A stretch of DNA of 20,778 bases from Microcystaceae cyanobacterium (GTDB taxonomy: Bacteria; Cyanobacteriota; Cyanobacteriia; Cyanobacteriales; Microcystaceae), in the NCBI GenBank assembly GCA_041746575.1, contig JBGTGT010000015.1:1-20778 (forward strand), given 5' to 3'. The notes under the pieces were generated by a model. It had not been told where the DNA came from. It searched no databases and saw only the letters and a list, made by a program, of their open reading frames with translations. The position numbers and the translations under genes are program-made. Below are positions 1-8,087 of the stretch, in pieces; position 1 is the first letter of the stretch, and every line of letters begins with the position of its first letter.

Positions 1-247
1 TTTCTAGTCCCACTACTTTGGCTATCTCAGGTAAACTCTTTCTTTTTATATCACTTATTAGCCCTACATGAAGATATTTAAAACACTCATAGGCTCTGAC
101 TTCTACAAATAAGTCTTGGTACAATTTACGAAGTCAGAGGAGGCCCTGTCGTTTCACGGCAGGGTCTCTCTGACAGTATGTATCAATGAATTTAACGGTT
201 GGGGCGGGGGGTCTAGGCTTAACCATTGTCTCTATCTGGGTTTCCAT
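1..247 (-). pseudogene. IS701-family transposase, N-terminal part, interrupted by a 45-bp insertion that carries an in-frame TGA
   Basis: Manual minus-strand translation from ATG 247 (or 226): METQIETMVKPRPPAPTVKFIDTYC-[QRDPAVKRQGLL*LR]-KLYQDLFVEVRAYECFKYLHVGLISDIKRKSLPEIAKVVGLE. The flanks match the typical cyanobacterial IS701 N-terminus (F.D.YC..Y..LF.EVR..E.FKYLH.G.ISD.KRK.LP.IA). Not in the ORF track. Confidence 0.85.
130..174 (+). mobile_element. 45-bp palindromic miniature insertion, possibly an IS200/IS605-derived (PATE/REP-like) element
   Basis: Removing 130-174 restores the transposase frame (YC-KLY). The insert folds as GTCAGAG(G)AGGCCCTGTCG-TTTCA-CGGCAGGGTCTCTCTGAC, follows TTAC (126-129), ends in TGAC, and shows no target duplication beyond the shared AC. 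Confidence 0.7.
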
Positions 248-447
248 CTCTTTTCTTCATTTTACTCTCCCCAGTCTGATGAAAGAGAGTTAGCTTAAAT
301 GAATTGCGCAATCAAATTATGCACCCTCAGCGTTCCTTAGTTAATAACAAAACTACTTTACAACAATTATGGCAAAGAATTGATCGTTTACAGGATGCCC
401 TCTTTCGACTACGACAGTTACAATTCGTTTCCCTTAAATAACCTAAA

Positions 448-2941: not shown

Positions 2942-3106
2942 TTAACAACCTCGGCGGCACGCTTGAGGCTGGGTACTATTTTGGACTTGCTCTTGAGCAG
3001 AAGCCGATTGATTTCCATATTCGTTTTCAGCATTCACTCTTTTCACGAAACCGAAAGAAGCGGTCAGGGTGAGGGCAACGAGGGTGATAGTGGTTAGGGA
3101 TTTCAT
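2942..3106 (-). CDS. Small secreted peptide precursor (54 aa): Sec-type signal peptide plus ~28-aa mature peptide ending CRRGC
   Basis: ATG at 3106 is preceded by AAGGAG at 6 nt spacing, so it is preferred over the ORF-track start at 3127. Sequence: MKSLTTITLVALTLTASFGFVKRVNA|ENEYGNQSASAQEQVQNSTQPQACRRGC. It has a basic N-terminus, a hydrophobic core and a V-x-A cleavage site. Confidence 0.75.
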   Translation of the reverse strand: MKSLTTITLVALTLTASFGFVKRVNAENEYGNQSASAQEQVQNSTQPQACRRGC

Positions 3107-3112
3107 GGCTGA

Positions 3113-3118
3113 CTCCTT
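3113..3118 (-). promoter_or_regulatory. Shine-Dalgarno sequence (AAGGAG) of the small peptide gene
   Basis: Minus strand TTAAGGAGTCAGCC-ATG. Confidence 0.75.
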
Positions 3119-3486
3119 AAATTTCATCTTTTGATTTATGCTTACATCATAGACGAAGAGTTAAAGATCGAATAACCGAAAAACTCTTTAAATCTAAATA
3201 TATTTTATTTTTAACTTGTGGTGAATATACGGAATAGTTAAGAGGTTATTCATATATAACTGTAAAAATGAATCAGTTGTCTATCTTAATGGCCTGAAAT
3301 TTTGATGGACCTAAAAAGGAGTGACGGAAATCACAAGCCCAGGTTGATCTTAGACACACAATGACCGGCTCATCTCAAGCCCCTCAAGTCGGTCAAGAAT
3401 CTATCATATAAATAAGCCTTTGTCTTTCTGGTTAAGTTTTGGCTTTGTTTAACTCAAGTTCTTTTTAGTCTGACCTTCCCCTTCCC

Positions 3487-6057
3487 TTAACTAGACTGCC
3501 GTAGTAACTCCGTTGCCACCTCTTTCGAGAGGGGTTTAGCAAAGAAATAGCCTTGTCCGTATTCACATTCTAAATCTTGGAGAATCTGTACTTGGTCGCT
3601 AGTTTCAATCCCTTCGGCGATGACGTCTAGCTCTAGATTATGCCCCAGCGCAATAATTGTTCGTACGATTTGACTATATTTTCCCTCATCTTCTGAGAGA
3701 TCCATACGACTGACAAAAGAGCGATCAATTTTTAAAGTATCTATCGGAAAACGATGAAGATAACTTAAAGAAGAATAGCCCGTCCCAAAGTCATCAATGC
3801 TTAACCGCAGTCCCAACGCTTTCAAGCGTTTCAATAATTCAATAGCCGCTTCCACGTCATTCATCATCATACTTTCCGTAATTTCTAGCTTCAACATCTC
3901 CCCCGATAAGCCAATTTGCTCTAAAGTCAAGGCAATTTGAGAGACAAGATTGGGTTGACTAAATTGACGACTTGAAAGATTGACACTCATAATTACCGAT
4001 TGATGTTGGGGAAACATTTGTTGCCATGTCCGCATTTGACGACAGGCTTCTTTTAAAATCCATTGGCCGAGTTCCACAATTAATCCTGTTTCTTCAGCGA
4101 TGGGAATAAAAGCACTGGGAGAAACAAAGCCCCGTTTAGAGGATTGCCAGCGAACTAAAGCCTCAAATCCAGCAATTTTACGGTTTTTTAGCGATATAAT
4201 CGGCTGATAATAAAGTCGAAACTCTTGGTTCTTTAAGGCATTCCAGAGATCTATTTCTAATTCCCAGCGTTGAGTTGCTTCTAAATCCATGCCTGCCAAA
4301 TAGAGATCATGACGATCCTTACCTGCCTCTTTAGCTCGATTCATCGCAATATCTGCATATCTCAGCAGTTCTCGGGCTTGAAATTCTCGACCCAGCGTGC
4401 CATGGGCAATACCCACACTGGCTGTGCTACGAATTTCTGTTCCTTGCCAAATAAAAATTTCTGCCAGTTCTTGGTGAATTAACGCCACAATCGTGTCAAT
4501 TTTTGAGTTGTCCACGGCGGATTTTAAACAGATGGCAAATTCATCCCCACCGACTCGGCCCAGAAAAGCCTGATCCTGAAATAATTGCTTCAGTTTTAAG
4601 GCGATCGCTTTAAGCAAGCAATCTCCGGCTTCGGGGCCTAGGGCAGCGTTAATCTTATTGAAACCATCAATATCCAAGAAAAATAGGGTCACTTGGTCAT
4701 GGGAAGGATCTATGCCTACACGATTGAATTTCTGGAGATTTTGCAGAAATAAACGACGATTCGGCAACTCTGTTAACGGATCATGATAAGTTCGATAAAG
4801 GACTTTATAAGCGAGTAGAGACGCCCCGGTCAGTGCCAGACCGAGAAGGGCAGGAACAAAAGGAATCCAAAACCCTTGCAGGTAAAAAAGCAAACTGAGG
4901 CTCCAAATTCCTCCCACTGCCAGCAATACCCCGCTTAAAAGTGGAACGAGGCGATTTGTCCGCCAAACTAAGATGCCTCCGACCCAACTCCAGCCCCAAA
5001 TCCAAATCCATTCTTGCTGATTTGACCAAGACGTTAAGGACGGTTGATCTTCCAAAACGCTTTTGATAATTTGACTGACCATCAAGCCATGAATTTTGAC
5101 GCCCGGCATCTCAAAATTAGTCGTGTTGGCCGCACTATAAGGCGTTGGAAACGTATCTTTCTTACTCGGTGCAACATAACCCACGAGAATTATCTTATTT
5201 TCAAGCCAGTTTGGCTCAAAATCTCCAGTCAAAAGCTGTTCTAAGCTAATTTGGCGAGCTACTTGCGGAGAGTCATATTTCAATAATACCTGCCAACCTT
5301 GGGCTTCCGAAGCCGGCAACTGATATCCCCCCGACGTAGATGATAAACGGGGAAAAACCGTGGAACTTATCTGCAAATCGTCAGGAAAAACCTTAAATAC
5401 CTTCTTATTTCGAGATTCTAGATATTTGAGTGCAATTTGAAGAGCAAAAGCATAAGCTTTGACTTGACCATTGGGGGATTGTCCATAAAGAAAATAGCGA
5501 CGTACCACATTATCGGGATCAATAATGAGATCCACAAACCCCACTCTTGACGCAGGTATACCTAACGGCGGGGGAACACCTTGGCTCTCACTATTAGGCA
5601 ACTGGGTTGGAACAATAATATTTTCGGCTTTTAGGGCTTGAGCTAATGCTTCCTCGCCAGGGGGATGGGGAACATCCCGAAAGATATCCAGTCCAATCAC
5701 CGCCGGACGATGTTGCTGTAACGCTCTTAGGAGTTTGGCAATCACCGCATCCGAAAGTTCTCCTTGTTGTTGTTTTTGGAGGTCTTTTTCATTAATGCCA
5801 ATAATCAGTAGGCGATCATCTAAGCCTTGATGAGAGGTTAAACGAACCAGATGATCGTAAGCAGTCAGTTCCAAAAATTGTAAATACCCTTTTTGACGAA
5901 TGCCTCCCAAAGTGACGGTTACCACTAAAGAAGAAAAAAGGATTGGCAAAAATAACAGTGTCAAGCAACGCTTACGGAACGACGAATTAATAGCAGGCAA
6001 GGGTTGATTGGCAGCACCGAATCGTTTTTGTCGCTTTCGAGAAAAGGGAGAACTCAC
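3487..6057 (-). CDS. CHASE2 - 3TM - GGDEF - EAL c-di-GMP signalling protein
   Basis: N-terminal TM. CHASE2 motifs (LELTAYD, DDRLLIIGINEKDL, VIGLDIFRD, DPDNVVRR, MPGVKIHG). Three TM helices, then HDPLTELPNR, RVGGDEF, FEALVRW, LEITES, DDFGTGYSSLSYL, AEGIET and GQGYFF. GTG start. Confidence 0.95.
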   Translation of the reverse strand: MSSPFSRKRQKRFGAANQPLPAINSSFRKRCLTLLFLPILFSSLVVTVTLGGIRQKGYLQFLELTAYDHLVRLTSHQGLDDRLLIIGINEKDLQKQQQGELSDAVIAKLLRALQQHRPAVIGLDIFRDVPHPPGEEALAQALKAENIIVPTQLPNSESQGVPPPLGIPASRVGFVDLIIDPDNVVRRYFLYGQSPNGQVKAYAFALQIALKYLESRNKKVFKVFPDDLQISSTVFPRLSSTSGGYQLPASEAQGWQVLLKYDSPQVARQISLEQLLTGDFEPNWLENKIILVGYVAPSKKDTFPTPYSAANTTNFEMPGVKIHGLMVSQIIKSVLEDQPSLTSWSNQQEWIWIWGWSWVGGILVWRTNRLVPLLSGVLLAVGGIWSLSLLFYLQGFWIPFVPALLGLALTGASLLAYKVLYRTYHDPLTELPNRRLFLQNLQKFNRVGIDPSHDQVTLFFLDIDGFNKINAALGPEAGDCLLKAIALKLKQLFQDQAFLGRVGGDEFAICLKSAVDNSKIDTIVALIHQELAEIFIWQGTEIRSTASVGIAHGTLGREFQARELLRYADIAMNRAKEAGKDRHDLYLAGMDLEATQRWELEIDLWNALKNQEFRLYYQPIISLKNRKIAGFEALVRWQSSKRGFVSPSAFIPIAEETGLIVELGQWILKEACRQMRTWQQMFPQHQSVIMSVNLSSRQFSQPNLVSQIALTLEQIGLSGEMLKLEITESMMMNDVEAAIELLKRLKALGLRLSIDDFGTGYSSLSYLHRFPIDTLKIDRSFVSRMDLSEDEGKYSQIVRTIIALGHNLELDVIAEGIETSDQVQILQDLECEYGQGYFFAKPLSKEVATELLRQSS

Positions 6058-6396
6058 AGCTCGCTATGACCCATCGAAAATAATCAATATTAGCATAATT
6101 CAATCTAAAAATAGGTTAAAGACTGGTTTAGTCGTCCATGGGCTGTTTCAATAATCCATCTTCTCCCATGATAATCTGAATCTTTCTGGGATAACACGGA
6201 GTCGAGCCAATATTTTAATGATGATTCCTTATTTTCTAAGGACATTTTCCGATATTCTTTTCCGTTAGGAATAGGGTATATTGTAGATAGTGAATCTTTA
6301 TTCATCATCTTAAGCAACGATTGAGAGAATTTCAATTGCGCTAAATAAATTGAATGGTTTTTATACTTTTGAGCCAGTTTGGTTAGGGACATTGAT

Positions 6397-7371
6397 ATGA
6401 TAACTAAAATCTTCATAAATCGAGCAATCGGATTCACCAGTGTCTCCTCTCTTCTGATAGGGACGTTTTTGCTGTTTGCCAGCCCGTCTTTAGCTCTATC
6501 TGGCGGAGATTCTAACACCGTTAGTACTCCATCTCGTCGTAAGCCTGGAGCTAGTCGTTTTGACTCTTCTGCGTTATCAGAAGTCAGCAGTCCGTCTCGT
6601 CGTAAGCCTGGCAGTACCCGTGAAGCTGGACTGGCTAGTCCACTCCGTCGTAAACCGGGCAGTACCCGCGAAGAGGTGATTGTGAGTCCTCTCCGTCGTA
6701 AGCCTGGCAGTACTCGTTCTGATATTGCGCTGCTGTTGCAAGATCAGAAGAGCAAACAAGGTTCTTATCACTGTAATTCTGATATTTATCAGCTGACAGC
6801 ATTAATTCCTGAAAATCTTCAATTAAAGACGACTCAAGCGACCCCGACCCTCTATTTCAAGATGCCGTCTTTGCCAACTCCGACCGAAATGGAATTTGTC
6901 CTACAAGATGAACAGCGACAGGTTGTCTATGCGGCAACGCTACGGGGTAATCCTCAAGCAGGGATCATGGCTTTAACCCTTCCTCCCTCTCAAGAATTGC
7001 AAGTTAATCAAAATTATCGCTGGTATTTATCGGTGATTTGTGATGCGAATCGTCGGGAACGAGATTTGGTCGTGGAAGGATTAATCCAACGGGTTGAACT
7101 CGATGCCACGACGCGCCAAAGTTTGAGCCACGCCTCACGCCAAGAACAAATTCGTCTGTATCAAGCGCAAGGATTATGGCAAGATGCGCTACAAACGGTG
7201 GTCACTGCTTATCAAGAGAGTCACGAAGCGGCACTGATTCCGGTATGGCAATCTCTATTAATAGAGATTAATTTAGGCGGGCTGGAGGATGCGATGACGA
7301 AAAAAAGCTTTTTTGCCCTTGATTTGCAACCCCTCAGTCTGAATGTCCCCGCCCCAATTAATTCTGATTAA
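6397..7371 (+). CDS. DUF928 domain-containing secreted protein with N-terminal basic repeats
   Basis: ATG at 6397 is preferred over TTG at 6379. Signal peptide ends SLA|LS. DUF928 motifs C..LTALIP, PTLYF..P, EFVL.DE, L.V...YRWY.SVICD, V.G.IQRV and Y...GLWQDAL. The stop codon overlaps that of the convergent glycosyltransferase (TTAA 7368-7371). Confidence 0.88.
   Translation: MITKIFINRAIGFTSVSSLLIGTFLLFASPSLALSGGDSNTVSTPSRRKPGASRFDSSALSEVSSPSRRKPGSTREAGLASPLRRKPGSTREEVIVSPLRRKPGSTRSDIALLLQDQKSKQGSYHCNSDIYQLTALIPENLQLKTTQATPTLYFKMPSLPTPTEMEFVLQDEQRQVVYAATLRGNPQAGIMALTLPPSQELQVNQNYRWYLSVICDANRRERDLVVEGLIQRVELDATTRQSLSHASRQEQIRLYQAQGLWQDALQTVVTAYQESHEAALIPVWQSLLIEINLGGLEDAMTKKSFFALDLQPLSLNVPAPINSD
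6526..6717 (+). repeat. Four in-frame 33-bp repeats encoding TPSRRKPGASR, SPSRRKPGSTR, SPLRRKPGSTR and SPLRRKPGSTR
   Basis: Copies at 6526-6558, 6589-6621, 6637-6669 and 6685-6717 (periods 63, 48, 48 bp). DNA core CGTCGTAARCCKGG, varying mostly at synonymous positions. Confidence 0.95.
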
Positions 7372-8087
7372 AAGAATAGAGACCGAATAAAAAACTGAGG
7401 CAAAACCAGCATCCTGCGCCAACGCCAAGGCTCTTGGTACAAACGATATAACCATTCTAGATGATTCTCGCGTAACCATTTTGGTGCGCGATTTTTCATG
7501 CCCGACCAAATATCAAAACTGCCCCCCACCCCTATCCAAGTGGCATTCGGACAGAGATGACGGTGTTGTTGAATCCAAAATTCTTGACGAGGAACGCCCA
7601 AACCCACCAAAATTAAGCGAGGTTGGGTAGATTCGAGCTTTGTCAACCATTTTTCTTGCTCTTCTGGGGAAAGATAGCCATGGTTGGCAATAATCACCAT
7701 ATTTGGGACTTTTTTTTGCCAGTTTTGCACGGCAGTTGCCATCACATCGGGTTTTCCACCATAAAAAGCAACCAGGTTGCCCTGTTGTCCTACTTTTTCA
7801 ATCACCGAAGCGGCCAATTCGATTCCGGGACAACGTTTCTGTTGATATCCTCGCAAGCGTAAATAAATAACTACTCCTGCACCATCAGGGACAACTAACT
7901 CCGCTTTTCTGATGATTTCAGCAATTTTTGGTTCTTTCTCTGCTAAAGTCGCCATTTCTGCATTAAGAGTCACCACATGAGTTCCTTGGTGATGGTCAAT
8001 CCGTTCCTTTAACCAATCGGTATAATTGGGCAAGAGATGAAGCGGTAGCTTTAAAACAGAGGCAATTTTGGGCGAGTTTAGCATCAT
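7368..8087 (-). CDS. WecB/TagA/CpsF family glycosyltransferase
   Basis: Motifs VVTLNAE, VPDGAGV, R.PGIEL, VGLGVPRQE, IGVGGSFD..SG, RAP.W, LEWLYRL.QEPWRWRR. Confidence 0.95.
   Translation of the reverse strand: MMLNSPKIASVLKLPLHLLPNYTDWLKERIDHHQGTHVVTLNAEMATLAEKEPKIAEIIRKAELVVPDGAGVVIYLRLRGYQQKRCPGIELAASVIEKVGQQGNLVAFYGGKPDVMATAVQNWQKKVPNMVIIANHGYLSPEEQEKWLTKLESTQPRLILVGLGVPRQEFWIQQHRHLCPNATWIGVGGSFDIWSGMKNRAPKWLRENHLEWLYRLYQEPWRWRRMLVLPQFFIRSLFF

Follow-up and report, generated by a model that had tools for sequence, protein, structure and literature searches.

The window, a single stretch of 20,778 nucleotides, carries a small peptide gene between the genes for a CHASE2-GGDEF-EAL protein and a two-partner secretion (TPS) exoprotein. 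These three genes share one strand, and a DUF928 gene further along is transcribed divergently (Table 1). The peptide ORF ends in A-C-R-R-G-C-stop. An alternative in-frame ATG at 3127, seven codons upstream, has no Shine-Dalgarno-like site. The N-region (MKS), hydrophobic stretch and VNA/E site are read as a predicted Sec signal peptide, judged by eye and from the conserved alanine at position 26. No ORF of note lies downstream of the TpsA gene in window 1-447. The promoter scan gave one site against 1.7 expected, and no terminator was found in the scan between the peptide gene and tpsA. The gene is single-copy, with no paralogue detected by tblastn in its own genome, and shows no variants across the contigs of four DNA runs from one study, three of which may themselves be the source of the DNA described here.

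Table 1. Position and proposed nature of the features at the peptide locus
Feature	Position	Strand	Remarks
TpsA-type exoprotein, 786 aa	448..2808	-	TPS domain 24-267; beta-helix to ~660; allelic N-half; C-terminal Cys 691 and 783; proposed peptide reader
Secreted precursor peptide gene, 54 aa	2942..3106	-	Core CRRGC; leader 27-48, containing EQV..QPQ; signal peptide 1-26
Hypervariable core C50-R-R-G-C54	2945..2959	-	Putative disulfide ring; allele of this strain
Predicted Sec signal peptide, residues 1-26	3029..3106	-	VNA/E; from sequence and conserved Ala26
Shine-Dalgarno-like AAGGAG	3113..3118	-	6 nt before ATG of the peptide gene
CHASE2-TM-GGDEF-EAL protein	3487..6057	-	GGDEF, EAL and DDFGTG motifs present; proposed inner-membrane c-di-GMP output
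DUF928 protein	6379..7371	+	Divergent; N-terminal RRKPG(A/S)(S/T)R repeats; proposed periplasmic adaptor

The sequence-only reading had described a 54-aa ORF with an AAGGAG ribosome-binding site, a signal-like start and a terminal ACRRGC. This was confirmed at 3106-2942, and many genomes have homologues with intact frames that occupy the same place in the gene order. A filter for a signal-like start, polar linker and terminal Cys pair, run over 466,736 stop-to-stop frames of the genome, returned five rows, two of which were the peptide ORF. GGAG or AGGA precedes 14 of 23 homologues, compared with a mean of 1.8 (maximum 7) in random 15-mers. The dN/dS check proposed in the earlier reading gave 0.31 for the leader and 0.18 for the signal peptide alone (8 Coleofasciculus loci), which indicates purifying selection on the leader. 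Together, the ribosome-binding site enrichment and the leader dN/dS support coding status. Comparison across genomes thus indicates that the ORF is a real gene for an unannotated mini-protein of secreted type.

Four homologues, two of them clear and two weak, came from a first search of 61 related genomes, and each stood immediately upstream of a TPS gene; iterated profiles then extended the set. With the single sequence as query, a search of 5.8 billion proteins matched the query alone; relatives emerged by profiles. The resulting family holds 69 distinct sequences (stored proteins and alignment A5), all from cyanobacteria where named. Members begin like a signal peptide and continue with a conserved polar leader, in many cases with EQI..PQ at its end, before a hypervariable core that usually has two cysteines. 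At least two cysteines lie within the last 20 residues in 64 of the 69, and PQ stands just ahead of the core in 43. The five members without the pair are four with Trp-rich cores and one truncated record; the four (P0039, P0041, P0047, P0052) carry their Cys-free cores on a Coleofasciculus-type leader. There are 59 distinct cores among the 69 members, 4-15 residues long (many only 4-6, and five in the window peptide), with loops of 2-10 residues. Across 64 loops the composition is R 13%, G 13%, F 12%, P 10% and W 10%, and D and E are absent. Cores recur as classes with conservative changes, and the same or nearly the same core is found on differing leaders.

Database searches agree with the proposal that these small precursors of secreted type, with their terminal Cys pair, form a family not described before. 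None of 30 members matched Pfam, and the window peptide had no NCBIfam match at E<=0.01, only sub-threshold ones. ESM Atlas gave matches of at most 0.81, to hypothetical or unrelated clusters, and a PDB sequence search gave five weak matches (E 0.08-0.58) on hydrophobic or signal-like stretches. Members are named "hypothetical" in Snowella, Crocosphaera and Coleofasciculus, and cultured strains with annotated members include Crocosphaera subtropica ATCC 51142 (cce_0321) and Coleofasciculus chthonoplastes PCC 7420 (MC7420_3133). The label "protochlorophyllide oxidoreductase" on a few members is probably borrowed from the neighboring gene. Full-length, neighborhood-confirmed matches occur in four families (f1, f14, f34, f38) among 401 genomes sampled from the order; most of the 98 tallied matches in that sample are partial signal-peptide matches and were left uncounted.

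The earlier reading had taken CRRGC as the conserved motif of the family and the linker as variable, low-complexity Q/N/S/E sequence. The reverse holds. RRG occurs in two of 69 members, and CRRGC in one member besides the query (P0009). The polar composition of the linker stands, but it is not mere filler, because it holds the family motif EQ(I/V)xxxxQPQxC. In JGI metagenomes, a degenerate DNA pattern for QPQxCRRGC-stop had 13 matches, none in a TPS/CHASE2 locus, and these are taken as chance. Tandem copies of the peptide gene with the same or nearly the same core occur in G033 (two; L211/L269), G034 (three; L243/L270) and G327 (two; L247). Two genomes, G001 and G184, each have two separate peptide-TpsA loci with different cores.

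The earlier reading also treated the peptide on its own and missed its coupling to the downstream TpsA gene. Among 41 loci inspected where the peptide was found (G004 and G328 left out), TpsA is the next gene downstream in 37, including a frameshifted TpsA in G337 and one that is split and 1.4 kb away in G144. Three of the others are split clusters, with the peptide beside the upstream CHASE2 gene and the TpsA orthologue elsewhere in the genome, and one ends at a contig edge. CHASE2 adjoins the peptide in 11 of the first 17 loci. In family f1 the order is DUF928 beside a run of CHASE2-GGDEF-EAL, peptide, TpsA and TpsB. In all nine Coleofasciculus genomes (f14) it is peptide, TpsA, CHASE2-cyclase and DUF928. 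A TPR-CHAT gene faces this run, and TpsB follows further on wherever the locus extends far enough. The CHASE2-GGDEF-EAL orthologue was not found in any of these nine genomes, whose clusters carry the CHASE2-cyclase instead.

Co-occurrence was scored in 89 family genomes (peptide at E<1e-3, CHASE2-GGDEF-EAL orthologue at E<=1e-150). Peptide and sensor were both present in 34 and both absent in 47, with one genome having the peptide only and seven the sensor only; kin among these genomes are not independent. Joint absence occurs within genera g19, g10 and g3. The 22 best TpsA orthologues comprise 16 with a family peptide directly upstream, three with a larger Cys-tailed ORF and three in split clusters. 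Of the 30 best sensor loci, seven have an adjacent peptide, 22-23 do not, and one is at a contig edge. The sole genome with the peptide and without the sensor orthologue is G337 (L249), where the TpsA gene is in pieces; the CHASE2-GGDEF-EAL gene is in pieces in G360 (L144). Either case may reflect decay or assembly error.

The window's own genome has four CHASE2 genes, each beside one of four DUF928 genes, together with four TpsA and four TpsB genes. TpsB is adjacent to TpsA in relatives, and the own TpsB nearest to their operon copy lies on contig C98 (53-59%). The N-terminal part of DUF928 (window 6523-6720) carries repeated RRKPG(A/S)(S/T)R units with a tandem repeat at 6598-6717 (period 48). 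Other DUF928 proteins have one Arg-Gly-rich motif at the equivalent place. The Arg-Gly-like motif of this cluster is on DUF928 rather than the peptide. A glycosyltransferase-like gene (window 7368-8087), presumably WecB/TagA-like, converges on DUF928 here and does so too in several relatives (G003, G359, G360, G024, G010, G022 and G005). Adjacency of CHASE2 and DUF928 has been noted in passing (PMC5587647).

The exoprotein belongs to two-partner secretion by its TPS domain (PF05860, E 2e-60), its beta-helix model and the adjacent TpsB in relatives. A structure model built from a 100-row alignment, which replaced a single-sequence fold (pLDDT 43), shows a beta-helix to about mature residue 640 (pLDDT 86, pTM 0.83). 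Its variable region has long loops, and the tail is modeled at low confidence. The best Foldseek matches were HxuA (4rt6/4rm6), EtpA, HMW1 and FHA domains, at low whole-chain TM-scores (0.19-0.32; top PDB match HxuA, 0.23). The tail contains the only two cysteines of the protein, which 100% and 97% of the 100 rows retain. HxuA binds a protein ligand and is described as anchored in its TpsB by a disulfide loop (PMC5422565, PMC4873976), and the C-terminal Cys pair matches this periplasmic anchor of HMW1 and HxuA (PMC5422565). Complex prediction for TpsA 1-640 with peptide residues 25-54 scored 0.03 (one pair), which counts neither for nor against binding. TpsA proteins range from 701 to 834 aa, stop to stop (L255-L264), because entire beta-helix repeat units are gained or lost where the variable and conserved halves meet, even between same-core genomes.

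Aligned across loci, the core and the TpsA N-half are a polymorphic block between conserved flanks. In eight Coleofasciculus loci, leaders are 88-100% identical, and cores are wholly different or fall in classes. The CHASE2 domain, DUF928 and CHAT are each 87-98% identical and the TpsA C-half 84-95%. Among the 28 pairs of these loci, protein identity of the TpsA N-half is 63-70% in 19 different-core pairs and 85-88% in five, and the two same-core pairs reach 90% and 100%. Core similarity correlates with N-half identity (Spearman 0.55, permutation p 0.011; 8 loci, 28 pairs), driven largely by the two same-core pairs, and is uncorrelated with the TpsA C-half (-0.10), CHASE2 (0.14), DUF928 (-0.03), CHAT (0.04) or leader (-0.22). 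N-half dS between different cores is 0.89 compared with 0.18-0.36 in the flanks, with dN/dS 0.23, which points to old alleles under purifying selection. DNA identity of G246, G437 and G462 to G382 falls from 90-98% to 57-80% from the core to about TpsA codon 450 and recovers near codon 450-500. The same-core genome G168 is 99-100% identical to G382 in the block, above its 90-96% further along TpsA, indicating recent exchange of the block.

A similar dip is seen in other genera. In genus g9 (G359/G360/G010) the TpsA N-half is 56-75% identical and the C-half 95-100%, with flanks of 91% (CHASE2), 89-96% (DUF928) and 93% (TpsB). In genus g4 (G022/G005) TpsA is 69% at residues 241-440 and 86-96% elsewhere. 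The pairing has exceptions. G131 has a core unlike that of G382 (similarity 0.09), yet its TpsA N-half is 85% identical, equal to its C-half, and its DNA identity to G382 across the block is intermediate. In a second TpsA class, G360 C67 and G010 C73 share the same core and are only 77-85% alike in mid-TpsA. Both cases argue against a strict one-to-one code between core and TpsA. The second class still follows the trend, however: a more distant genome with a similar core reaches 73-79%, and a closer one whose core differs only 49-62%.

A peptide tail that varies in step with a neighboring surface protein is what one might expect of a chemical password specific to the strain, together with its reader. 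Comparison of genomes shows the anatomy of the precursor, the gene cluster, the co-occurrence and the co-variation; from these we infer that the peptide is a strain-specific signal read by surface-anchored TpsA and relayed to cyclic-nucleotide signaling, a reading to which we give an even chance. The precursor would be exported by Sec, its core disulfide would close in the periplasm, and trimming near the PQ motif would release the core; a CHAT protease is present in the Coleofasciculus clusters. The core would be bound by the allelic N-half of the TpsA beta-helix, with TpsA held in the TpsB pore by a C-terminal disulfide loop, as for HMW1 and HxuA. The conserved C-terminal part of TpsA may relay the signal via TpsB and DUF928 to the CHASE2 protein, whose output would be a change in c-di-GMP here and a cyclic mononucleotide in Coleofasciculus. 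Such a change would probably act on motility or biofilm behavior, and each allele would define a pherotype of its own. In S. meliloti, CHASE2 cyclases are described as responding to a protein signal via an outer-membrane beta-barrel (PMC13001267). A Leptolyngbya CHASE2-GGDEF protein suppresses motility and biofilm, and the ligand, for it as for CHASE2 domains, is given in that report as unknown (PMC10581220). Sensors without a detected peptide (seven of 89 genomes) or without an adjacent one (22-23 of 30 best loci) argue against the signal model, as do the five members without a Cys pair. Of the earlier proposal of cyclic signaling or inhibitor peptides, the new family stands and signaling is the best reading; its Arg-Gly/PatX lead is not supported.

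The same co-variation would be expected if the peptide were a structural cofactor or cap that binds TpsA of its own cell, in folding, secretion, masking or as a plug of a ligand site, with no message between cells. The peptide would then co-evolve with a TpsA surface that diversifies for other reasons, such as adhesion or escape from phages or grazers. No neighbor is more constant than TpsA (37/41), and other TpsA genes also have Cys-tailed small ORFs upstream. This explanation accounts poorly for the tight co-occurrence with the CHASE2 sensor and DUF928 in two gene orders and for the three clusters in which the peptide gene stayed next to CHASE2 although TpsA has relocated, and the tandem copies in G033, G034 and G327 fit dosage of a diffusible product. 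We consider it unlikely, if still worth keeping in view.

A conserved leader, variable core and tandem copies are typical of bacteriocin loci, and this family has all three. The peptide could accordingly be a microcin- or bacteriocin-like competition peptide. TpsA would be its cognate neutralizer or its scaffold for delivery, and attack would be sensed by the CHASE2 module. The cationic and aromatic loops would suit such a role, but many cores, including that of the window peptide, are too short to lyse membranes. The locus maps, in which ORFs below about 200 aa were covered unsystematically, revealed no small immunity gene, double-glycine leader, ABC exporter or modifying enzyme. There was no Pfam or NCBIfam RiPP match, and no modifier or exporter was noticed among neighbors compared with nine query domains and by eye. 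An antimicrobial function seems improbable overall.

Because the core adjoins the TpsA N-half, cassette exchange anchored in the leader and the TpsA C-half could couple both without binding, and linkage alone could explain part of the co-variation. In its full form, this explanation has the TpsA N-half swapped as an antigenic cassette with the adjacent core traveling along, while the peptide acts elsewhere (e.g., by direct contact with CHASE2 or DUF928) or the sequence of its core is of little consequence. The exceptions G131 and G360/G010 and the three loci that keep the peptide with CHASE2 rather than TpsA are in its favor. Linkage explains less well the lasting core classes, with identical or near-identical cores persisting across differing leaders, and the constant CHASE2. 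CHASE2 domains are 95-98% alike despite unrelated cores (G246, G437, G382), a poor fit with direct allele-specific binding to CHASE2. In G361/G036, where peptide and TpsA are unlinked, the TpsA dip also persists (65% at residues 241-340 vs 79-88% elsewhere). Mere hitch-hiking appears quite improbable.

PatX and PatS are defined by an RG(S/T)GR pentapeptide (PMC7761841) and are found in genomes with HetR. A PatX/PatS-like inhibitor of HetR, a lead taken from the PatX-type layout noted in the earlier reading, can practically be dismissed, since RG(S/T)GR occurs in none of 69 members and the own genome has neither hetR nor patX. The hetR gene was absent from this genome (G000, 99.8% complete) and from G001, G021 and G003, and G000 had no match to the PatX model (NCBIfam NF047413); control genome G382 was positive for both. 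In G382, patX lies beside hetR, on another contig than the peptide gene, and the peptide neighborhood differs. The likeness is a coarse one, of a short cyanobacterial precursor with a signal-like N-terminus, a linker and a C-terminal motif, and one of 30 family members weakly matches the PatX model (E 0.0046).

Autoinducing peptides of staphylococcal agr systems have a small ring-closed core, which the putative ring here recalls. Quorum sensing by peptides that fall into pherotypes is known mainly among Gram-positive bacteria. In comQXPA of Bacillus, a small secreted precursor and polymorphic signal and sensor alleles lie in one locus and define pherotype groups (PMC4008528). The present cluster likewise has a conserved leader with a polymorphic core and a linked co-varying partner, the TpsA N-half, apart from the exceptions above. 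It differs in coming from a diderm cyanobacterium, and its cluster maps show TPS, ShlB, CHASE2-GGDEF-EAL or cyclase, DUF928 and CHAT, but neither a ComQ or AgrB modifier nor a histidine kinase with its response regulator. Its polymorphic partner is an outer-membrane-exported beta-helix, its membrane sensor is conserved, and its output would be c-di-GMP or a cyclase product. The cluster is thus organized like Gram-positive pherotype cassettes from unrelated parts, and is no member of comQXPA or agr.

HxuA/HxuB and HMW1 share the TPS domain, beta-helix, length of about 800 aa and C-terminal Cys pair. The HxuA ligand, unlike the peptide, is a host protein for haem uptake, and HxuA has no self-encoded peptide or CHASE2/DUF928 module. 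CdiBAI loci also pair TpsA/TpsB with a small gene that is cognate to them and part of a polymorphic cassette, with roles described in kin discrimination and signaling (PMC5422565). Here, however, the variable part is the N-half rather than a C-terminal toxin, TpsA is short, and the small gene is upstream and has a signal peptide. The cluster is not CDI, because the TpsA C-half is the conserved part. In the NsrA-CyaD1/CyaD2/CyaK system of Sinorhizobium, a protein signal switches on CHASE2 cyclases by way of an outer-membrane beta-barrel; that signal is a plant protein, and the available text of the report describes no TpsA, DUF928 or self peptide (PMC13001267).

No description of the peptide or of its pairing with TpsA was found in the literature covered, which was mostly open-access. 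If the signal reading is true, cyanobacteria would have a kin-specific peptide signal, TpsA proteins would gain a new job as allele-specific receptors, and DUF928 and CHASE2 would gain assigned roles. Even under the weaker alternatives, an unannotated family is locked to a polymorphic surface cassette. The signal reading is directly testable because cores of 4-15 residues can be synthesized and cultured strains carry members. More tentatively, and with rather less than even confidence, we propose a widespread self/non-self peptide language of cyanobacteria, in which disulfide-loop peptides would be read allele-specifically by TpsA and relayed via TpsB and DUF928 to CHASE2 c-di-GMP or cyclase enzymes, with several unrelated leader classes feeding the same design. 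If true, it would account for many orphan TpsA, CHASE2, DUF928 and CHAT genes in these genomes.

The placement of a peptide upstream of TpsA may be a general design. In 79 GTDB loci, a Cys-tailed small ORF precedes 20 of 82 first-in-run TpsA genes; among other long ORFs the count is 18 of 327, an odds ratio of 5.5. Inspection by eye found roughly 15 of the 20 convincing, and the small ORFs fall in several unrelated leader classes. One class has an acidic leader without a signal peptide and a Cys-rich C-terminal core; it lies upstream of TpsA in genus g9 (L295, L296, L297, L298, L293) and in GTDB loci L093, L117, L122, L124 and L129, and the one member searched (L124) had no NCBIfam match. Seven other loci (L059, L066, L094, L072, L091, L107, L113) have secreted Cys-tailed precursors upstream of TpsA with leaders unrelated to the family. 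The own genome has a second complete cluster (G000:C123:82718-96135) with CHASE2, DUF928, TpsB, an S8-type protease, TpsA and CHAT. It also encodes a secreted protein of 154 aa (88163-88627) that is TPR-like and has a tail rich in Cys.
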